A stretch of 64,000 bases of DNA from Gemmatimonadales bacterium. Lineage in GTDB: Bacteria; Gemmatimonadota; Gemmatimonadetes; Gemmatimonadales; GWC2-71-9. The stretch lies in contig DASXTV010000011.1 in the NCBI GenBank assembly GCA_036505175.1, positions 64,046-128,045 of the forward strand, written 5' to 3'. The notes under the pieces are model-generated. The model did no database searches. It saw only the letters and a list, made by a program, of their open reading frames with translations, and was not told where the DNA came from. Each line of letters starts with the position of its first letter. Within the stretch, counting starts at the first letter, position 1. The position numbers were made by a program, and so were the translations under genes. This document shows, in pieces, positions 39,108-48,618 of this stretch.

Positions 39108-40163
39108 ATGGCACTTCCCGCGACTCGGCCGACGGCAGCCATCCCCTCCGGGGCGGTGCTGTCGTCCGATCAGCTCCTCGAGATCTACTACTACCTGCGG
39201 CTCACCCGGACGCTGGAAGAACGGCTGGTGGCGCTGTACCGGCAGACCAAGGTCATTGGCGGGCTATTTCGGTCCCTCGGCCAGGAAGGGGAGTCGGTCG
39301 CCTCGGCGTATGCGCTGGAGCGCGGGCGCCATAAGGACGTTCTGTCCCCCCTCATCCGTAACCTCGGCTCCCTGCTCGTCATGGGCGCACAGCCGGTCGA
39401 AATCCTCCGGCAGTACATGGCCAAGGCCGATGGCCCCACGCGCGGCCGCGAGCTCAACGTCCATTTCAACGACCTCGAGAAGGGCTACCTCGGCCAGATC
39501 TCCCACCTTGGGGACATGATCCCGGTGATGGCGGGGATCGCGCTGAGCTTCAAGCTGCGGGGCGAGCCGCGCGTCGGACTGGTCTATATCGGCGACGGCG
39601 GGATGTCGACCGGCACGTTTCACGAAGGCCTGAACTTCGCCGCCGTGCGGCGGCTGCCGCTGGTCGTCATCGGCGAGTACAACCACTGGGCGTACTCGAC
39701 GCCGCCCGAGAAGCAGTTCGCGGTGAAGGACCTCGCCGAGAAGGCCAAGGGGTACGGAATCGCGGCCGTGACCGTGGACGGGAACGACGTGTTCGCGGTG
39801 TACGAAGCGACCAGATTTGCGGCGGAGCGCGCACGCCGCGGGAAGGGCGTGCATTTCGTCGAGGTGAAAACGTATCGCCGCAAGGGTCACGCCGAGCACG
39901 ACGATCAGCACTATGTGCCGAAGGACGAGTTGGAGCAGTGGGCGAAGGCGAACGATCCAGTCGATCGCTATGTGCAACGACTGCTCGCGGCCGACCTGGT
40001 TGCCCAGGGTGACTTGCAAGACATCGACGATCGCGTGCGCGTCGAAGTCGATCAAGCGACGGATGCCTGTGTGAACGAACCGCTGCCGGAGGGCGAGACG
40101 GCGTTGCCCGGCGTGTACGTCGATCCGCCCGCGGCCGACAAACTCTGGTTCAAGAGTCGCTGA
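39108..40163 (+). CDS. 2-oxoacid (pyruvate/branched-chain) dehydrogenase E1 component, alpha subunit
   Basis: TPP motif YIGDGGMSTGTFHEGLNFAAV...NHWAYSTP; 351 aa. Confidence 0.9.
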   Translation: MALPATRPTAAIPSGAVLSSDQLLEIYYYLRLTRTLEERLVALYRQTKVIGGLFRSLGQEGESVASAYALERGRHKDVLSPLIRNLGSLLVMGAQPVEILRQYMAKADGPTRGRELNVHFNDLEKGYLGQISHLGDMIPVMAGIALSFKLRGEPRVGLVYIGDGGMSTGTFHEGLNFAAVRRLPLVVIGEYNHWAYSTPPEKQFAVKDLAEKAKGYGIAAVTVDGNDVFAVYEATRFAAERARRGKGVHFVEVKTYRRKGHAEHDDQHYVPKDELEQWAKANDPVDRYVQRLLAADLVAQGDLQDIDDRVRVEVDQATDACVNEPLPEGETALPGVYVDPPAADKLWFKSR

Positions 40164-41143
40164 TGCCGGAAGTCACTTTTCTCGAGGCGCTCCGCCAGGG
40201 CTTGTGGGAAGAGATGGAGCGCGACGACCGCGTCTTCATCCTCGGCGAGGACGTCGGCTTGTATGGCGGCGCGTTCAAGGTCACGGACGGCTTCAGCAAG
40301 CGCTTCGGCGAGTCACGCGTGATCGATACACCCATCTCCGAAGCGGCGATCGTGGGAGCGGCCGCGGGCGCTGCGCACATGGGTCTGCGGCCGGTCGCCG
40401 AGATGCAGTTCATCGACTTCATCTCGTGTGCATACGACATGCTCACGAATTACGTCGCGACGGCGCGCTACCGCGCCGGCCTCTCGACGCCGATGGTCGT
40501 GCGCGGCCCCTGCGGCGGCTACGTGCGCGGCGGGCCGTTTCATTCGCAGAACCCCGAGGCCGCATTCCTCCACACCCCCGGGCTCAAGATCGTCTATCCG
40601 GCGACCGTGCGGGACGCAAAGGGGCTCATCAAGTCCTCGATTCGCGACGAGGATCCCGTGCTCTATCTCGAGCACAAATGGCTCTACCGGCGCATCAAGG
40701 AGGAGCTGCCGGAGGGTGAGGAGATTCTCACGCCGATCGGCAAGGCGCGCATCGCACGCGAAGGGAAGCATCTTTCCATCATCAGCTACGGCGCCACGCT
40801 GTGGAAATCGCTGGAGGCGGCCGATCAGCTCGAGCAAGCGGACGGCGTCTCGGTCGAAGTGCTCGACCTGCGCACATTGCTGCCGATGGACGATGCCGCG
40901 ATGGTCGCGACGGTGAAGAAGACGAATAAGGTCCTGATCGTGCACGAGGATACGCGCACGGGCGGCATCGCGGGGGAGATCGCGGCGCGCATCAATGAGC
41001 AGGCATTCGAATGGCTCGACGGGCCGATCATGCGCGTCACGGCGCACGACGTGCCGCTGCCGTATGCGCCGACGCTGGAAGACTTCGTGCTGCCCCAGAC
41101 CGACGATATTGTGAAAGCGGCGAGATGGTTGGCGAAATACTGA
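40163..41143 (+). CDS. 2-oxoacid dehydrogenase E1 component, beta subunit
   Basis: ATG overlaps the alpha stop (TGATG). GEDVGLYGGAFKVTDG...DTPISEAAIVG motif. Confidence 0.9.
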   Translation: MPEVTFLEALRQGLWEEMERDDRVFILGEDVGLYGGAFKVTDGFSKRFGESRVIDTPISEAAIVGAAAGAAHMGLRPVAEMQFIDFISCAYDMLTNYVATARYRAGLSTPMVVRGPCGGYVRGGPFHSQNPEAAFLHTPGLKIVYPATVRDAKGLIKSSIRDEDPVLYLEHKWLYRRIKEELPEGEEILTPIGKARIAREGKHLSIISYGATLWKSLEAADQLEQADGVSVEVLDLRTLLPMDDAAMVATVKKTNKVLIVHEDTRTGGIAGEIAARINEQAFEWLDGPIMRVTAHDVPLPYAPTLEDFVLPQTDDIVKAARWLAKY

Positions 41144-41144
41144 G

Positions 41145-41212
41145 CTATTCGGTATCCGCTATTCGGTATCCGGCCGGTTGTGTCGAACACCGAATACCGG
41201 AGAGCGGATACC
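41145..41212 (+). repeat. structured intercistronic element: 14-bp direct repeat x2 plus nested inverted repeats
   Basis: CTATTCGGTATCCG at 41145-41158 and 41159-41172. GGTATCCGC (41151-41159) is complementary to GCGGATACC (41204-41212). TATTCGG (41160-41166) is complementary to CCGAATA (41190-41196). Confidence 0.8.
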
Positions 41213-41225
41213 AATTGGAGATGCT

Positions 41226-42569
41226 ATGGCGCGCCTAGACGTACTGATGCCCCAGATGGGTGAATCCATCGCCGAGGGCACGCTCAGCAAGTGGCTCAAG
41301 AAGGTCGGCGACCCCGTCAAGCGGGACGAGCCACTGTTCGAGATCTCGACCGACAAAGTCGACGCTGAAATCCCGGCGCCGGCGGCCGGCGTGTTGGCCG
41401 AAATCAAAGTACAGGAAGGGCAGACAGTCCCCGTGCAGACGCTGGTCGCGGTGCTCGAGACGGAGAAGGGCGCCGCCTCGCCTGCGCCCGCGAAACCGGA
41501 GCCGCCGAAAGCCGCGGCGCCACCGCCGTCGGCGCCTAAGCCCGAACCTCCAAAGGCCGCACCGGCACCCGTGGCGTCCGCACCGGCCGCCCGGCCGTCG
41601 GGCCGTCCGGCCGACGGTGATGGGGGAGTCCAGACCGCGGAGCAGCGGCTCCGCACCAAGTCCACGCCCCTGGTTCGGAAGATTGCAGCCGAGCACAGTG
41701 TCGACATCTCGCGCATCCCGGGGAGCGGTTACGCGGGACGTGTCACCAAGCAGGACATCCTCGGGTACATCGAACGAGCACCGACAGCCCCGGGAGTCCC
41801 GGCTCCTGGCTCCCGACTCCCGGCTCCTTCCGGTCCGATCGAGCATCCGGTCGTCGAACCATGGCCAGGCGATCGCGTCGAACCCTGGTCCAAGATTCGC
41901 AAGATCACCGCAGATCACATGGTGATGTCGCGGCGGGTCTCCGCGCACGTCGCGAGTTTCTTCGAAGTCGATTTCACGCGCGTCGCGCAGCTGCGCAGTA
42001 AGGCAAAGCAGAGCTACGCCGAGCGCGGCGTGAACCTCACGTTCCTCGCGTTCATTGCGAAGGCCTGCGCCGAGAATCTTGGCAAACATCCGATCGTCAA
42101 TGCGGCGGTCTCGGGCGACAGCACCATCTATCGCGCCGATGTCAACATCGGCATCGCGGTCGCACTCGACTGGGGCCTCATCGTTCCGGTGATCAAGCAC
42201 GCCGACGAGCTGTCGCTGATCGGCATCGCCCGCGCGATCAATGATCTGGGGGAGCGCGCGCGCACCAAGAAGCTGTTGCCCGACGACATCCAGCGCGGCA
42301 CCTTCACGATCACCAATCCAGGCGGCTTCGGGCCATTTGCCGGCATTCCGATCATCAACCAGCCGCAAGTAGCCATCCTCGGCGTGGGCGCGATCGAAAA
42401 ACGCCCCCGAGTCGTGACCGCGTCCGACGGCACGGAGTCCATCGCGATCCGCACCATGGGGATGCTCACGATGTCCTACGATCATCGCGTCGTGGACGGC
42501 GCCGACGCCGACAGGTTCCTGGCCGACGTGAAGCAGCTGTTGCAGGAGTTTCCCGAGGGAGCGGTGTGA
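41226..42569 (+). CDS. dihydrolipoamide acyltransferase (E2) with one lipoyl domain
   Basis: ATG 41226 after GGAG. Lipoyl motif EISTDKVDAEIPAP, Ala/Pro linker, E3-binding domain, catalytic SYDHRVVDGA. Confidence 0.9.
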   Translation: MARLDVLMPQMGESIAEGTLSKWLKKVGDPVKRDEPLFEISTDKVDAEIPAPAAGVLAEIKVQEGQTVPVQTLVAVLETEKGAASPAPAKPEPPKAAAPPPSAPKPEPPKAAPAPVASAPAARPSGRPADGDGGVQTAEQRLRTKSTPLVRKIAAEHSVDISRIPGSGYAGRVTKQDILGYIERAPTAPGVPAPGSRLPAPSGPIEHPVVEPWPGDRVEPWSKIRKITADHMVMSRRVSAHVASFFEVDFTRVAQLRSKAKQSYAERGVNLTFLAFIAKACAENLGKHPIVNAAVSGDSTIYRADVNIGIAVALDWGLIVPVIKHADELSLIGIARAINDLGERARTKKLLPDDIQRGTFTITNPGGFGPFAGIPIINQPQVAILGVGAIEKRPRVVTASDGTESIAIRTMGMLTMSYDHRVVDGADADRFLADVKQLLQEFPEGAV

Positions 42570-42889
42570 GTATGCCCAAAGTCCTGACCGCGGCGCGCGT
42601 GCGCGTCCCCACGCAGAACGAGACGGAGTACGTGAACACGCTGCGCGAGCTGAGCCAGTTCGCCGAAGCGCGCGGCCAGCGGATCTGGTTGTACCGCAAC
42701 GCCAAGGATCCACGGCTGTTCATCGAGTTTTCCGAGAGCCCGACCGAGATGTCACACCGCGCCCAGGCCTCACGGCTTCCTGAGGAGATCAAACTCGAAA
42801 AGCGCCTTCAGGCGCTGGCGACGTACGCGCCCGACGCCTGGGAGTTGTGGAGTGAGGTGAGTGTATGGCCAGCCGAACGATCACAGTAG
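42566..42889 (+). CDS. hypothetical protein
   Basis: 107-aa ORF. GTG overlaps the E2 stop (GTGA). No family recognised. Confidence 0.45.
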   Translation: MSMPKVLTAARVRVPTQNETEYVNTLRELSQFAEARGQRIWLYRNAKDPRLFIEFSESPTEMSHRAQASRLPEEIKLEKRLQALATYAPDAWELWSEVSVWPAERSQ

Positions 42890-43134
42890 CAACCGACCGC
42901 TGGGAGGTGTATCCCTCCGGCCGCGTGACCGTGTACGGCCGCGATCAGTTCGGTCTCATCTTCGAGCACGGCGCGGGGCCGCAGCGCCGCCGCCGCGTCA
43001 CGCACTTTTCGCCGCTCGGGGCTCGCTCGCCGGATCGCGCCTTGACGGAGCTCTCCGAGCGCGAGCTGCTCGAGCTGTTCCAACAATCGCAGCCGGCGTG
43101 GACCGCCCCCGAGGTCGATTACGCCGCACATTGA
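42865..43134 (+). CDS. hypothetical protein
   Basis: 89-aa ORF overlapping the previous ORF by 25 nt. Its stop overlaps the conserved start region of the PHP gene. Confidence 0.4.
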   Translation: MASRTITVATDRWEVYPSGRVTVYGRDQFGLIFEHGAGPQRRRRVTHFSPLGARSPDRALTELSERELLELFQQSQPAWTAPEVDYAAH

Positions 43135-44011
43135 TCTGCATTGCCATTCGACGGCCTCCGATGGCGAGTGTGAGCCGCCGGAGGTCGCGCGCCGCGCCCG
43201 GGCGGTCGATCTGGCAGCGATCGCGCTCACCGATCACGACACCACGGATGGCGTCGCGGATGCGGCGCAGGAAGGCGACAAGCTGGGCGTTCGCGTCATT
43301 CCCGGGTGCGAGTTCAGCGTGCGCGCGCCGTGGGGTGAGCTGCACGTGCTCGCGCTCTTTCTGCCGCAGGGAAACGAACGGCTCCAGACGTTCCTGCGCG
43401 ACACGCGCGCCGCGCGACGCATCCGCGGCGAGCAGATCGTCGCCAAGCTGCAGCGCCTTGGCGTGCCGATCGACCTCGAGGACGTCCAGGCGCAGATGCT
43501 CGGCGGGGACGGGGGGAAGGGGGCGCTCGGGCGGCCGCATGTCGCGCGCGCGCTCGTCGACAGTGGCGCGTGCGACACCATCAGCGATGCGTTCCGCCGC
43601 TACCTCGGCCGGGGGCGGGCCGCCTACGTCGAAAAACCGCTGCCCAACCTCGGCCAGGTCACGGCGCTGGTACACGACGTGGGAGGGCTAACCGTGGCCG
43701 CGCATCTGGGTGATCACGGCACCGAGGCCCAGCTCCGCATCTTTCAGGACCAGGGACTCGACTGTGTGGAGGTCCGGCATCCCAGCCACGCACCCGCGGT
43801 CGAGCAGCGGCTCACGCGCATCGCCGAGCGGCTCGGACTGGGCATCAGCGGCGGGTCGGACTGGCACGGCGAGAGTGAATACGGTGAGATCCACGCGCCG
43901 TTGGGTGGCATGCGTGTGCCCGACACGTGGCTCCAGCCGCTCGAGCAGCGCCTCGAGCGCACGGCGAAGCAACGGGGAGAACATGAGCGAACCGCTACCG
44001 ATCGGCAGTAA
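43130..44011 (+). CDS. PHP-domain metal-dependent phosphoesterase; start codon unresolved (non-canonical ATT/CTG or frameshift)
   Basis: The frame is open from 43046. Codons 43130 onward read IDLHCHSTASDG...LTDHDT..G (PHP motifs I/II), but the first ATG/GTG/TTG in frame is GTG 43319. The rest (HLGDHG, VEVRHPSH, GGSDWHG) is intact. Confidence 0.65.
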   Translation: MDLHCHSTASDGECEPPEVARRARAVDLAAIALTDHDTTDGVADAAQEGDKLGVRVIPGCEFSVRAPWGELHVLALFLPQGNERLQTFLRDTRAARRIRGEQIVAKLQRLGVPIDLEDVQAQMLGGDGGKGALGRPHVARALVDSGACDTISDAFRRYLGRGRAAYVEKPLPNLGQVTALVHDVGGLTVAAHLGDHGTEAQLRIFQDQGLDCVEVRHPSHAPAVEQRLTRIAERLGLGISGGSDWHGESEYGEIHAPLGGMRVPDTWLQPLEQRLERTAKQRGEHERTATDRQ

Positions 44012-44420
44012 AGCTCCGCCCTTCAAGGCGCCCGCCTCCGACGCCCGCACATACGCGCTCGCGGATCTACTCAAGCGCGGACCGGTTGCGCTGGTCTTCT
44101 ATCCGGGAAACAACACCCCCGGCTGAAACCGCCAACTCTCCGCCGTGCGCGATGAGATCGCCAAGTTCCATGCCGCCATGATGCAGCCGCTGGGTGTGAA
44201 CCCCGCGAGTGTCGACAGCCATCGCGGCTACGTCGACAAGATGCGGTTCAACTTCCCGCTGCTCTCCGATCCGGAGCGCACGATCGCCCGCGCCTACAAC
44301 GCGCTCAAGGACGACGGCAAGGGTATCCAGCGGACCGTCTACGTGATCGGGCGCGACGGCACGGTCCGCTTTGCGCAGCGTGGTGCCCCTCCAGTGGATG
44401 AGATCGTCCGTGCCGGCTGA
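43983..44420 (+). CDS. bcp: Bcp/PrxQ-type peroxiredoxin with in-frame TGA (44124-44126) at the peroxidatic Cys position: candidate selenoprotein, alternatively a pseudogene
   Basis: ATG 43983 after GGGGAGAA. It reads ...VALVFYPGNNTPG-TGA-NRQLSAVRDEIAKF...NFPLLSDPERTIARAY...TVYVIGRDGTVRF. Both halves are in the same frame and together span the whole thioredoxin-fold family length (145 codons). Confidence 0.55.
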
Positions 44421-45135
44421 TCTCCATGGCAAGGTCGTTCTGGTCACGGGTGTGGGACGCGTCGGTCAGATCGGCCACGCGGTGGCGCGCGGCCTCGGCC
44501 GCGCCGGGGCGAAGCTGCTGCTTGCCGACGTCAATGCCGTCGGGCTGGCGGACCGCATCAAAGAGTTCGGGGCGGAAGGGATCGCGGCCAAAGCGTCGGC
44601 GGGCGACCTGACCCAGCCGGAGGTCGCACGCGCGGCAACCGCCGCGGCGCAGGCGCAGTTCGGCGGTCTCGACGCCGTCGTGAACGTGGCCGGTGGATTC
44701 TTCAGTTACGGGCCGTTCACCGACGTGAAGCCCGAGATGCTCGATCGCGAGCTGGCCGTCAACTTCAAGACCGCATTCTACATGTGTCAGGCCGCCGTGC
44801 CGTTGCTGCTGTCTCGGGGTGGCGGATCGATCGTCAACTTCGCGTCGATCGCGGTGGTCCGCTCGCTCATGCACATGTCGGCCTACAGCGCGGCGAAGTC
44901 GGCGGTCGCCGGGCTCACGCGCGAGCTGGCGCGCGAATACCGCGACGCCAACATCCGAGTGAACGCGGTAGCGCCCGCGACCGTCCGCACGGCCGACAAC
45001 GTGGCGCAGATGGCGGATTCCAAAACCCCGCTGGTCGAGCTGGACGAAGTCGTGAATACCGTCCTCTTCCTCGCGAGCGACGAGGCAAGCGCGATTACGG
45101 GCCAGATCGTCCCCATCACCGGGAAGGCGTACTAG
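44398..45135 (+). CDS. SDR-family oxidoreductase
   Basis: GKVVLVTGVGRVGQIG cofactor motif, YSAAK catalytic motif. Start is ATG 44398 or GTG 44410 (track start 44371 is less likely). Confidence 0.85.
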   Translation: MRSSVPADLHGKVVLVTGVGRVGQIGHAVARGLGRAGAKLLLADVNAVGLADRIKEFGAEGIAAKASAGDLTQPEVARAATAAAQAQFGGLDAVVNVAGGFFSYGPFTDVKPEMLDRELAVNFKTAFYMCQAAVPLLLSRGGGSIVNFASIAVVRSLMHMSAYSAAKSAVAGLTRELAREYRDANIRVNAVAPATVRTADNVAQMADSKTPLVELDEVVNTVLFLASDEASAITGQIVPITGKAY

Positions 45136-45866
45136 TGCGGCTCGAGGGCGCGGCCGCGCTGGTGACGGGAGCCGGGAAGCGGATCGGCCAGGCGATCGCG
45201 ATTGGCCTGGCGCAGGCCGGCTGCGATGTCGCCGTGCACTATCACGGCTCCGGGAAAGGAGCCGAGGAGACGGCGCGAGCGATCACGAAAGCGGGACGGC
45301 GCGCCGAGCTGTTGAACGCCGATCTGAGCGACGGCGGGGCGGCGCGGGGCCTCGCCGACCAGGCAGCCCGCGCACTGAAACGACTCGATGTGGTCGTGAA
45401 CTCCGCCGCGATCATGGTGCGCCAGCCGGTGGAAACCGTGACCCCCGAGAGCTGGGACACGACGCTCGATCTCAACCTGCGCGCGACGTTTTTCGTCTCG
45501 CAGGGCGCGATCCCCCATCTCCGCCGCACGAAGGGCAAGATCGTCAACATCGCCGACCTGGCCGGCCTGGAGCCCTGGCCCACTTACATCCCGCATTGTG
45601 TCAGCAAGGCAGGGGTGGTGATGCTGACGAAAGCGTTGGCGCGCGCGCTCGCGCCCGACATCGCGGTCAATGCGGTTGCCCCCGGCGCCGTCCTCTTGCC
45701 GGAGGATTGGGACCAGCAGTCGCGCGAGCACATTCGCGAGACCACGCCGCTCGCGCGCATCGGCTCGCCCGCCGACGTCGTCGCGGCCGTCCGCTTTCTT
45801 CTCGCGGGCACCGACTACGCGACCGGGACGATCCTGGTCGTCGACGGGGGGAGACTGCTCCGCTGA
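45135..45866 (+). CDS. SDR-family oxidoreductase (pteridine-reductase-like)
   Basis: GTG 45135 overlaps the previous stop (TAGTG). AALVTGAGKRIGQAIA, NSAA, YCVSKAG motifs. The track ORF 44784..45866 has a spurious extension. Confidence 0.85.
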   Translation: MRLEGAAALVTGAGKRIGQAIAIGLAQAGCDVAVHYHGSGKGAEETARAITKAGRRAELLNADLSDGGAARGLADQAARALKRLDVVVNSAAIMVRQPVETVTPESWDTTLDLNLRATFFVSQGAIPHLRRTKGKIVNIADLAGLEPWPTYIPHCVSKAGVVMLTKALARALAPDIAVNAVAPGAVLLPEDWDQQSREHIRETTPLARIGSPADVVAAVRFLLAGTDYATGTILVVDGGRLLR

Positions 45867-45874
45867 GGGACGTC

Positions 45875-46627
45875 GTGGTGGTCGGCGGCGGCTGCTACGG
45901 GACGTTCTACGCGTCGCAACTCGAGAAAGCCAAAGCGCGCGGTAAGACGGACTATCGGGCCGTTATCGTCGTCGATCGGAATCGGGACTGCCAAGCCAGA
46001 CGCGAGCTGGGCGAGGCCCCGGATCGCGAGTTCGTCATCTCCGATTGGACCACGTTCTTCGATCAGTTTTTGACCGTCAGACCGTCAGACCGTCCGACCG
46101 CCAGTACCGACGACCAGATCGTCCCGTCTCCCCACATGCCCCATCTCATGTTCGAGTGGGTTCTCAGGCGGGCGCGTGAGCGCTGGCCGAACCGGACGGT
46201 GTCGGTCGAGCCGGTCCCTGGGGATTTCCTGACGCCCCTCCCCTACGACCGTCCTGGTGCGGATCACACACGCTACGTCTCGTTTGCGGACTGGATCTGT
46301 CCAACGCATTGCATCGAGCCCGCGCTCTGTCCCGCCATTGGGGCGCCGCGGACCTGGGAGATGTCGGATGCGGTGCGGCAGCTCGCAAGCCGACTGACGG
46401 AGGGCGGCCGCCCGGTGCGCGGCCCCGCGTTGTTTGTGTGCAAGCACCACGTCTTCGGCGTGGGGATGTTTGCGGCTGATGCGGTACGCGCGGGCGACCG
46501 CGTCGTGCAGGAGGCCGGATCGACGAACGCCGCCGCGGAAATTCTGGTTGGGACGATTTCGAGCTGTCATGGGGCGTTGAACCTGCTTCAACTGGGTGCG
46601 TTGTGCGTGGTGCGTGGTGCGTGGTAA
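45875..46627 (+). CDS. hypothetical Rossmann-fold (GGGxxG) protein with CPTHC...CP cysteine cluster
   Basis: GTG 45875 after GAGGGA gives (M)VVGGGCYGTFYASQ. No family recognised. Carries octamer and heptamer DNA repeats. Confidence 0.55.
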   Translation: MVVGGGCYGTFYASQLEKAKARGKTDYRAVIVVDRNRDCQARRELGEAPDREFVISDWTTFFDQFLTVRPSDRPTASTDDQIVPSPHMPHLMFEWVLRRARERWPNRTVSVEPVPGDFLTPLPYDRPGADHTRYVSFADWICPTHCIEPALCPAIGAPRTWEMSDAVRQLASRLTEGGRPVRGPALFVCKHHVFGVGMFAADAVRAGDRVVQEAGSTNAAAEILVGTISSCHGALNLLQLGALCVVRGAW

Positions 46628-46667
46628 GGCACGCGGGCCCACGCACCACGTACCACGCACCACGCAC
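46596..46667. repeat. long imperfect palindrome built from GGTGCGT heptamers and their complement
   Basis: GTGCGTGGTGCGTGGTGCGTGG (46603-46624) faces CCACGCACCACGTACCACGCACCACGCAC (46639-46667). It spans the stop of the upstream gene and ends at the start of the DUF309 gene. Confidence 0.85.
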
Positions 46668-47012
46668 GTGAAGCCAGAGGATCGCCGGCGGTACCTGCAA
46701 CATGCTCGCGACCTGTTCAATGCGGGCGAGTATTGGTTAGCGCACGAAGCGTTGGAAACAGTCTGGCGTTCTATTATTAAGGAAGCCGAGGCACGGGTGT
46801 GGCAGGGCTTCATCCAGGCCGCCGCCGCCCTGCTGCATCGGGCTCGCGGGAACCGCCACGGCACCGTCGTCGTTGGAGCGGCGGCGCTCGAGAAGCTGGC
46901 GGGCCCGCAGCTTCCCGACATCGAGTTCGAAACCGTACAATTTCGCGCGCAGCTGGCGCGCGCCCTGGCGGGTGAGGGGGATCCCCCGCGACTGGAATTC
47001 AGAAGCACATGA
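46668..47012 (+). CDS. DUF309-family protein
   Basis: GTG 46668. LFNAGEYWLAHEALETVW...WQGFIQAAAALLH is the DUF309 signature. Confidence 0.7.
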   Translation: MKPEDRRRYLQHARDLFNAGEYWLAHEALETVWRSIIKEAEARVWQGFIQAAAALLHRARGNRHGTVVVGAAALEKLAGPQLPDIEFETVQFRAQLARALAGEGDPPRLEFRST

Positions 47013-47980
47013 CCAAGCGTGTAGCACCCATTTACGACGTCGTCATCGTGGGTGCCGGTCCTGCGGGGCTGTGCGCCGCGCTGTACGCGGGGCGTGGCAT
47101 GCTCAAGGCGGTGACCATCGAGCGCGGCGCGCCGGGTGGCGAGCTGCTGAATACCGACCTGATCGAGGACTACATCGGGTTCGAGAGCATCAAGGGGTGG
47201 GAGCTCGCGCAGAAGATGACCGAGCACGCCAAGACGTTCGGCGCCGAAATCGTGACCGACACCGTGGAGCGCATCCACCGCGATGCGGATGGCTGGTTCG
47301 ATGTCGACACGGCGCGCGGCGACACCTATCGCAGTCAGGCGGTCATTCTCACCGCGGGCGGCACGCCGGTGAAACTCGGCGTGCCGGGAGAAAAAGAGTA
47401 CGCGGGTCGGGGCGTGTCGTACTGCGCGGTCTGCGATGGGGCGTTCTTCAAGGGCGAGCGGCTGGCGGTCGTCGGCGGTGGTGATGCGGCGGTCGAGGAG
47501 GCCGACTACCTCACGCGCTACGCCAGCAAAGTGCATCTCGTGCATCGCCGCGAAGAGTTTCGGGCGTCCAAGCTGCTGCAGGAGCGCGCGTTCGCGAATC
47601 CCAAAATCGAGGTGATCCGCAATACCACGGTGCCGGAAATCGTCGGCAATGAGAAAGGTGTCACCCACGCCGTGCTCGAGCACACCGCCACGGGCAAGCA
47701 GTCCCACCTCGACGTCGGGGGCGTGTTCATCTTCGCCGGATTCAAACCCAACACCCAGCTCGTGGACGGCCATGTGGATCACGACGCTGGCGGGTATATG
47801 ATCACGGACAACCGTATGATGACGTCGATGGCGGGGTTGTTCGCCGCGGGGGACGTGCGGAGCCAGGTCACCCGTCAGATCACGACGGCCGTTGGCGACG
47901 CGACGACCGCAGCGATTGCGGTCGAGAAATACCTCAAGTCGCTGCGCGAACAACACGGCGACGGCACAGGCAAGCAGTGA
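47009..47980 (+). CDS. trxB: thioredoxin-disulfide reductase
   Basis: DVVIVGAGPAG, redox-active CAVCDG, GGGDAAVEEA, FAAGDV motifs; 323 aa. Confidence 0.95.
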   Translation: MTKRVAPIYDVVIVGAGPAGLCAALYAGRGMLKAVTIERGAPGGELLNTDLIEDYIGFESIKGWELAQKMTEHAKTFGAEIVTDTVERIHRDADGWFDVDTARGDTYRSQAVILTAGGTPVKLGVPGEKEYAGRGVSYCAVCDGAFFKGERLAVVGGGDAAVEEADYLTRYASKVHLVHRREEFRASKLLQERAFANPKIEVIRNTTVPEIVGNEKGVTHAVLEHTATGKQSHLDVGGVFIFAGFKPNTQLVDGHVDHDAGGYMITDNRMMTSMAGLFAAGDVRSQVTRQITTAVGDATTAAIAVEKYLKSLREQHGDGTGKQ

Positions 47981-48618
47981 AGATCGTTTCGATTCCCAAC
48001 GGCATGTTCGCAGAGAATTGCTATCTCGTGGTGGACGAGCAGGCTGGCGCGTGCGCCATTGTGGATCCCGGCGAAGAAGCCGGCCTGATTCTTCACAAGG
48101 TCAAGGAAACCGGCGCGCAGCCCGTCGCGATCTGGCTGACGCACGCGCATCTCGACCATGTGCTCGGCGTGCCGAGGGTCGCCGCTGAAACAGGAGCGCC
48201 CGTGTGGCTGCATCCCGCCGACCGCCCGCTGTACGACGGCGTGCCGGAGCAGGCCGCCTGGTTTGGCCTCGCGCCCCCGGAACGGCTTCCCGCTCCCGAT
48301 CACGACCTGGCGCATGGCGCCGCGCTGCAGGTCGGCGACCTGCGCTTCGAGGTCCGGCATGCCCCCGGACACTCGCCCGGCAGCGTGTGCCTGCGGGGGC
48401 CGGGGGTCGTATTCACCGGCGACGTCCTGTTCGCGGGTTCGATCGGACGGACCGACCTGCCGGGCGGTGACTTCGGGACGCTGATCGCCAGCATCGAGCG
48501 CGAGTTGCTCCCGCTCTCCGATGACACCATCCTGTACAGCGGACATGGACCCGAAACCACCATCGGACGGGAGCGCCGCACAAATCCCTTCCTCACCGGC
48601 GCCTCCCGAATCGCCTAA
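47977..48618 (+). CDS. MBL-fold metallo-hydrolase (glyoxalase II-like)
   Basis: THAHLDH metal motif, HAPGHSPG, GRTD; 213 aa. GTG overlaps the trxB stop. Confidence 0.85.
   Translation: MKIVSIPNGMFAENCYLVVDEQAGACAIVDPGEEAGLILHKVKETGAQPVAIWLTHAHLDHVLGVPRVAAETGAPVWLHPADRPLYDGVPEQAAWFGLAPPERLPAPDHDLAHGAALQVGDLRFEVRHAPGHSPGSVCLRGPGVVFTGDVLFAGSIGRTDLPGGDFGTLIASIERELLPLSDDTILYSGHGPETTIGRERRTNPFLTGASRIA

Follow-up and report, generated by a model that had tools for sequence, protein, structure and literature searches.

A peroxiredoxin gene with an in-frame UGA codon

We analyzed a 64,000-nucleotide stretch of a Gemmatimonadales genome (GenBank assembly GCA_036505175.1, contig DASXTV010000011.1, positions 64,046 to 128,045; hereafter the window), in which a peroxiredoxin gene carries a TGA codon at the position of its catalytic Cys. 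The pattern of conservation across relatives indicates that this gene very probably encodes a functional Bcp/PrxQ-type peroxidase with selenocysteine (Sec, U) inserted at the UGA. The gene and the codon lie at the following positions, numbered within the window.

43983..44420, forward strand: peroxiredoxin coding sequence, predicted product of 145 residues with U at residue 48; start codon ATG 43983, stop codon TGA 44418-44420
44124..44126, forward strand: in-frame UGA, the inferred Sec codon, in the motif P-x3-T-x2-U (PGNNTPGU); TGA at this codon in 154 of the 159 orthologues that could be classified

Translation of positions 43983-44423 gave 47 codons, the TGA at 44124-44126, 97 further codons, and the terminal TGA. 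An earlier reading of the window from its letters alone (the sequence-only reading) had placed two open reading frames (ORFs), 43710..44126 and 44145..44420, in one shared frame with only the TGA and six sense codons (NRQLSA, 44127-44144) between them, and translation bore out the coordinates, the frame, and the gap. The start codon is preceded by a purine-rich GGGGAG at 43974-43979, and 99% of 142 orthologues retained the initial Met. The ends of the gene lie within its neighbors, with an overlap of 29 nt with the PHP gene upstream and of 23 nt with the short-chain dehydrogenase/reductase (SDR) gene downstream. The gene calls of the Joint Genome Institute (JGI) that we inspected split the peroxiredoxin into ORFs of 47 and 91 amino acids (aa), and the protein database contained many truncated 91-aa products of this gene; the exact 91-aa product of the window had no record in an exact-match look-up.

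The joined product, with Cys placed at the stop, matched the Pfam family AhpC-TSA (PF00578) over profile positions 1-123 of 124 (E=4.8e-32; 110.9 bits, cut-off 26). The match ran unbroken across the TGA, in agreement with the end-to-end resemblance to Bcp/PrxQ-type peroxiredoxins described in the sequence-only reading. The best matches among solved structures were Bcp-type peroxiredoxins, namely 2cx3 (E=8.5e-18) and 5enu (E=1.2e-16). The TGA aligned exactly with the peroxidatic Cys of both structures ('FFPAAFSPVCTKEL' in 2cx3 and 'FYPKDNTPGCTTE' in 5enu) and with the catalytic Cys of Cys-containing relatives ('YPGNDTPGCNRQLSAVRDE'), which confirmed the earlier assignment of the TGA to the catalytic position. 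The active-site motif PxxxTxxC(U) was present as P41-GNN-T45-PG-U48, and R117 in 'IQRTVYVI' aligned with the catalytic Arg of 2cx3 ('KRAVFIV') and 5enu ('ERSTFLI'); this Arg (codon +69) was conserved in 100% of the 142 orthologues.

The resolving Cys that lies five residues after the peroxidatic Cys (CP+5) in the atypical 2-Cys Bcp mechanism was absent from the window protein, in which this position is Ser53, and the translated sequence contained no Cys residue at all. The 1-Cys mechanistic type is a known Bcp variant. Scores against NCBIfam equivalog models lay below the respective cut-offs for Bcp (NF006960; 62.3 versus 140), PrxQ (NF053650; 53.6 versus 260), and PrxU (NF040737; 39.5 versus 270), and by these cut-offs the window protein appears to represent a distinct, uncurated subfamily. 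One 123-aa database protein, P0062 (YPGNNTPGSNRQLSAVRDE), has Ser where the window protein has U; this Ser could be a real variant or an artefact of TGA translation.

Conservation of the UGA and of both halves of the gene

Related sequences were collected in two scans. The GTDB species-representative genomes yielded 80 loci with tblastn matches spanning the stop, all in Gemmatimonadales/Gemmatimonadota metagenome-assembled genomes (MAGs), and a scan of metagenome contigs, deliberately seeded with a Cys-form relative (P0012), yielded 78 classifiable loci. Conservation statistics were based on 142 distinct TGA-containing genes, and RNA pairing counts on 119 sequences. The codon was TGA in 81/81 genome sequences (the window and the 80 species representatives retrieved) and, despite the Cys-form query, in 73 of the 78 soil metagenome loci, the remaining five having TGC or TGT. 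At least 154 related soil-bacterial sequences therefore share the TGA, and its conservation across these independent assemblies is far beyond chance.

Pairwise protein identity among 143 distinct Sec forms reached a minimum of about 50-53%, and no further stop or frameshift occurred in any of the 142 genes. Mean amino-acid conservation was 0.82 upstream of the UGA and 0.82 downstream, and synonymous heterozygosity was ~0.42 on each side. Because conservation is equal on either side of the UGA and is accompanied by abundant synonymous change, both halves of the gene are evidently translated and under purifying selection. The sequence-only reading had proposed comparing orthologues for a TGA or Cys codon and for constraint downstream of it, and both comparisons came out in favor of the selenoprotein that it had suggested.

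A conserved RNA hairpin after the UGA

The 30-nt block following the UGA, AACCGCCAACUCUCCGCCGUGCGCGAYGAG, was essentially invariant across the 142 genes, synonymous sites included. Synonymous heterozygosity at codons +1 to +10 was 0.06, whereas 47 conserved degenerate codons outside this block gave 0.43 (p=8e-6 by Mann-Whitney test), and nucleotides 1-33 after the UGA varied at four positions only, all of them unpaired (44132, 44135, 44148 in one sequence, and 44153). The following elements were located in this region, including a candidate Sec insertion sequence (SECIS).

44127..44135, forward strand: AACCGCCAA, the 9 nt that separate the hairpin from the UGA, varying only at 44132 (C/U/A) and 44135 (A/G) among 142 unique sequences
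44136..44156, forward strand: candidate SECIS hairpin CUC-UC-CGC[CGUGC]GCG-AY-GAG, from per-nucleotide conservation and RNAalifold
44149..44161, forward strand: hairpin GCGAT-GAG-ATCGC of the sequence-only reading; its 5' arm belongs to the 44136-44156 hairpin

The candidate SECIS consists of CUC (44136-38), UC, CGC (44141-43), the loop CGUGC (44144-48), GCG (44149-51), AU, and GAG (44154-56). All 12 paired nucleotides were invariant in 119-142 distinct sequences, the six pairs were intact in 119/119 sequences, and RNAalifold independently predicted the same helix. The apical loop is 5 nt long and begins 17 nt downstream of the UGA, its positions 2 and 3 being G and U, and the predicted free energy (dG) of the hairpin was -5.4 kcal/mol alone and -6.5 to -7.9 kcal/mol in context. 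The consensus model of bacterial SECIS (bSECIS) elements describes a loop of 3-9 nt at 16-37 nt from the UGA, in which the first two loop positions contain G and the next nucleotide is usually G or U (PMC13188914). The predicted loop and spacing of the candidate fit this published consensus.

The downstream hairpin claimed in the sequence-only reading (44149-44161) does exist in the window but was rejected as the SECIS: it is not conserved, with 71.8% of cells pairing and the pair between columns 37 and 45 broken in 73/119 sequences, and the SECIS candidate is the 44136-44156 hairpin instead. A permissive Rfam search of 44050-44250 returned chance-level matches only. RNAalifold also predicted a 3-bp mini-hairpin, CGG[CUGAAA]CCG, at 44120-44131, which holds the UGA in its loop and in which one pair varies (CG in 95 sequences, UG in 17, UA in 1, and broken in 6).

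Relaxation of the block in Cys-codon relatives

Relatives with TGC or TGT at the catalytic codon retained the peptide sequence of this region, CNRQLS(A/C)(V/A)RD(E/D), with changed nucleotides; therefore, selection at the protein level cannot explain the nucleotide invariance of the block. Stem nucleotides were changed in 5 of 9 Cys lineages, as opposed to 0/142 Sec forms (Fisher p=2e-7). Decay of the block was graded across these nine lineages (L166, L083, L084, L085/L086/L161, and L167-L171), with no substitution in L166 and 2-7 in the others, including seven in the L085 group. With its TGC codon and intact hairpin, L166 looks like a very recent Sec-to-Cys switch, and the Cys-form relatives together appear to be a natural series of Sec-to-Cys conversions.

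We judged the kinship of the two forms by nearest-neighbor identities. The closest Cys forms were 85-91% identical to the Sec form L087 and only 65-74% identical to the window protein, and Sec and Cys forms are therefore interleaved. This interleaving matches the dynamics of Sec/Cys exchange reportedly known from earlier work. A second Cys six residues past the catalytic one (CNRQLSC), at a position occupied by Ala in Sec forms, was found in L085, L086, and L161 and in the proteins P0004 and P0007; this residue may have been acquired recently as a resolving Cys, together with the loss of Sec.

Genomic context

The peroxiredoxin gene belongs to a tightly packed, co-directional cluster on the forward strand (40163-48618), which is conserved in >100 loci and the spacing of which was near-constant in 58-142 related loci. 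The cluster encodes, in order, E1-beta and E2 of a 2-oxoacid dehydrogenase, orf107, orf89, a PHP phosphoesterase, the Sec peroxiredoxin (PrxU), two SDRs, an AF_1314_C-like protein (250 aa, PF27252), a DUF309 protein, TrxB, and a metallo-beta-lactamase (MBL) hydrolase, and several gene pairs overlap by between a few and 29 nt. The thioredoxin reductase gene of this cluster lies as follows.

47009..47980, forward strand: TrxB-like thioredoxin reductase with a CAVC motif (Pfam Pyr_redox_2, 7e-46), 2.9 kb downstream of the peroxiredoxin

In 86 loci, trxB was co-directional with the peroxiredoxin gene at a median distance of +2823 nt from the UGA. The sequence-only reading had called the neighboring genes redox-related, and the two SDRs, DUF309, the TrxB-like Pyr_redox_2 protein, and the MBL hydrolase were all confirmed, but the neighborhood is better described as a conserved co-directional cluster with trxB. 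Three loci from JGI metagenomes (L163-L165; 3300036860, 3300036863, and 3300036864) had a TrxB identical to that of the window and the same gene order. The peroxiredoxin of L163 and L164 had been called as a 47-aa ORF with a weak AhpC-TSA match and a 91-aa ORF, and L165 begins downstream of the peroxiredoxin.

Upstream of the peroxiredoxin, the PHP phosphoesterase gene (~43127-44011) has no in-frame ATG, GTG, or TTG before its conserved N-terminal HIDLHCHSTASDG motif (from 43127), and for this reason its start was called at GTG 43319, with loss of the HxH motif. The codon before DLHCHS was GTT in 83 loci, ATT in 43, and ATA in 2; this codon and the stop codon TGA of the preceding orf89 (42865-43134, 89 aa) overlap as (A/G)TTGA. 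Candidate explanations for the PHP start are a non-canonical start codon, termination-reinitiation, or a +1 shift at CAT-TGA-T.

Proposed mechanism and points against it

At this locus, the UGA in the catalytic position is conserved, the coding sequence on either side of it is under purifying selection, and a conserved RNA hairpin is linked to the UGA. Together with the relaxation of the hairpin in Cys relatives, these features strongly support the selenoprotein interpretation. Sec as the inserted residue, the involvement of SelB, and the identity of the reductant are inferred. The 44136-44156 hairpin, acting as a SECIS 9 nt past the UGA, would recruit SelB-GTP-Sec-tRNA(Sec) to the A site, so that Sec would be inserted at the UGA instead of translation terminating there, as in canonical bacterial Sec insertion. 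The resulting enzyme would reduce peroxides via a Sec-selenenic acid intermediate. Because Ser occupies the resolving-Cys position and the protein has no Cys, the catalytic cycle would probably be of the 1-Cys type (1-Sec), with the selenenic acid reduced directly by an external thiol reductant. A thioredoxin system is a plausible reductant, given the presence of trxB in the conserved cluster that includes the peroxiredoxin gene, and TrxB may have a role in supplying the reducing system of the peroxiredoxin.

Several observations weigh against this mechanism. The helix is short, consisting of two 3-bp segments that flank a 2x2 internal loop, and the upper segment compares with an upper stem of 4-16 bp in the consensus bSECIS model; its stability is marginal, at -5.4 to -7.9 kcal/mol versus a model threshold of -7.5 kcal/mol (PMC13188914). 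The stem is invariant, so that no covariation supports the pairing. Folding of the region, a check put forward in the sequence-only reading, did not help its case: the 83-nt single-sequence fold of 44118-44200 was no better than that of shuffled sequence (z=+1.13). This unremarkable fold is attributable to a short and marginally stable helix, and such an element would escape detection by thermodynamics alone. Searches by tblastn with E. coli SelA, SelB, and SelD (NC_000913.3) and by ARAGORN did not find selA, selB, selD, or tRNA-Sec in the window and about 160 related loci (1.19 Mb), which all represent one genomic neighborhood, and this negative result is hence uninformative. Finally, the selenium papers and supplements searched did not mention Gemmatimonadota as a Sec user.

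Two further searches covered the window as a whole. The tRNA and Rfam search found tRNA-Leu only, and no tRNA-Sec. The search for a second selenoprotein used the hairpin core CGCCGTGCGCG and a scan for other in-frame TGA codons based on third-codon-position GC content (GC3); the scan returned only chance or antisense-looking matches, was uncalibrated, and missed the peroxiredoxin itself at the thresholds applied.

Alternative explanations

The UGA might be recoded as a residue other than Sec, either by hairpin-stimulated near-cognate read-through or by a tRNA-Sec-like tRNA charged with Cys, which would place Cys (or Trp or Gly) at residue 48. We consider this improbable. It would accord with the lack of Sec machinery in the one neighborhood searched, with a hairpin that only marginally fits the consensus bSECIS model, and with the existence of evidently functional Cys forms of the same enzyme. 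However, what defines bacterial Sec insertion is a UGA at a catalytic Cys position with a conserved stem-loop ~10-20 nt further on that has GU in its apical loop, and an enzyme with Trp or Gly as its peroxidatic residue would be inactive. Were Cys inserted, nothing would account for >150 lineages retaining the UGA and a 30-nt invariant element in place of TGC. Moreover, neighboring genes use TGA as an ordinary stop: it terminates 6 of the 11 cluster genes, including the peroxiredoxin gene itself, and the genetic code is therefore not reassigned genome-wide. A related and equally unlikely scenario is that these Gemmatimonadales have no standard selA/selB/selC/selD set, or that a divergent SelB acts on the unusually small, invariant 21-nt element, in which case decoding of the UGA would follow a novel route or yield a residue other than Sec. 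It is more likely that the gene is the first documented selenoprotein of its phylum, with a minimal SECIS at the edge of the consensus model, than that recoding here is non-canonical.

It is very improbable that the gene is expressed as two small proteins, one an N-terminal peptide of 47 aa and the other a product of 91 aa with its start at GTG 44145. This GTG exists, and 91-aa products are common among database entries; however, neither fragment is a complete thioredoxin fold, the 91-aa piece is without the catalytic residue, and the Pfam match is continuous across the junction. In addition, the six codons from the TGA to the GTG are invariant in both amino-acid and nucleotide sequence and match the CNRQLSA of Cys homologues.

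The sequence-only reading had retained as a caveat a simple nonsense pseudogene, in which TGA arose by mutation of a Cys codon and the sequence past it is degenerating. Two fragments are indeed what gene callers report, and the local fold is unremarkable, but this explanation is refuted, to the point of being barely credible: 154 independent sequences with amino-acid identities as low as about 50% share the TGA, the 97 downstream codons are as conserved as the 47 upstream amid abundant synonymous change, and the frame is intact in 142/142 sequences. The chance of a sequencing or assembly error in a true TGC or TGT codon is negligible: a single base separates these codons from TGA and the source is metagenome-derived, but the same TGA recurs across unrelated projects and technologies (sequences with the prefixes QHU, DAS/DAT, and WNG, CAWH/CAVP long-read MAGs, and JGI Ga contigs), and genuine TGC/TGT relatives are distinguishable and rare.

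Comparison with known systems

Among bacterial selenoproteins, the peroxiredoxins that carry Sec in a TxxU motif (PF00578, COG1225) form an established and fairly common family, described in Sargasso Sea and genomic surveys (PMC1088965, PMC5029168, PMC13188914), as the sequence-only reading had held for peroxiredoxin selenoproteins in general, and the window gene adds to this established kind rather than constituting a new one. It shares with the TxxU family the AhpC/TSA fold, the predicted Sec in place of the peroxidatic Cys in PxxxTxxU, widespread Cys homologues, and a coding-region stem-loop after the UGA, and COG1225 is the Bcp-type class to which the window gene also belongs. Unlike that family, the window gene comes from soil Gemmatimonadales, has no resolving Cys, and is followed by a very short and sequence-invariant SECIS candidate.

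PrxU of Eubacterium acidaminophilum is a Sec-containing peroxiredoxin shown experimentally (Sohling et al. 2001, as cited in PMC13188914). The window protein resembles it in the predicted Sec at the peroxidatic position, but PrxU belongs to another subfamily and is about 230 aa long, and the score of 39.5 bits versus 270 for the NF040737 model (peroxi_PrxU) indicates that the two are not equivalogs. The best sequence matches of the window protein are Bcp/PrxQ thiol peroxidases (Aeropyrum pernix 2cx3/2cx4, Burkholderia 5enu, and the E. coli-type NF006960), which are similar in size (about 150 aa) and have both its active-site motif and its conserved Arg. Those proteins use Cys, mostly with a resolving Cys, whereas the window protein has the predicted U, and Ser at CP+5.

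The RNA element resembles the SECIS of E. coli fdhF in being a coding-region stem-loop 3' of the UGA, with a G-U apical loop and a helix broken by unpaired nucleotides. The minimal fdhF element starts ~11 nt after the UGA, and the window hairpin 9 nt after it. The fdhF element is about 40 nt long with a predicted dG of -14.9 kcal/mol, in contrast to 21 nt and ~-5.4 kcal/mol for the window element, and the two have no sequence similarity.

Implications

Many species-level genomes of Gemmatimonadales, which are abundant soil bacteria, appear to be selenium-dependent for peroxide detoxification. Annotation pipelines and selenoprotein catalogues would gain a large and clean family that the gene calls inspected truncate or split. 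The family comprises >140 distinct genes in which a minimal hairpin is invariant, as well as Cys revertants showing its stepwise decay. It could help to define the minimal SECIS needs of a non-model SelB, and the same set of Sec and Cys forms could aid the study of Sec/Cys exchange.

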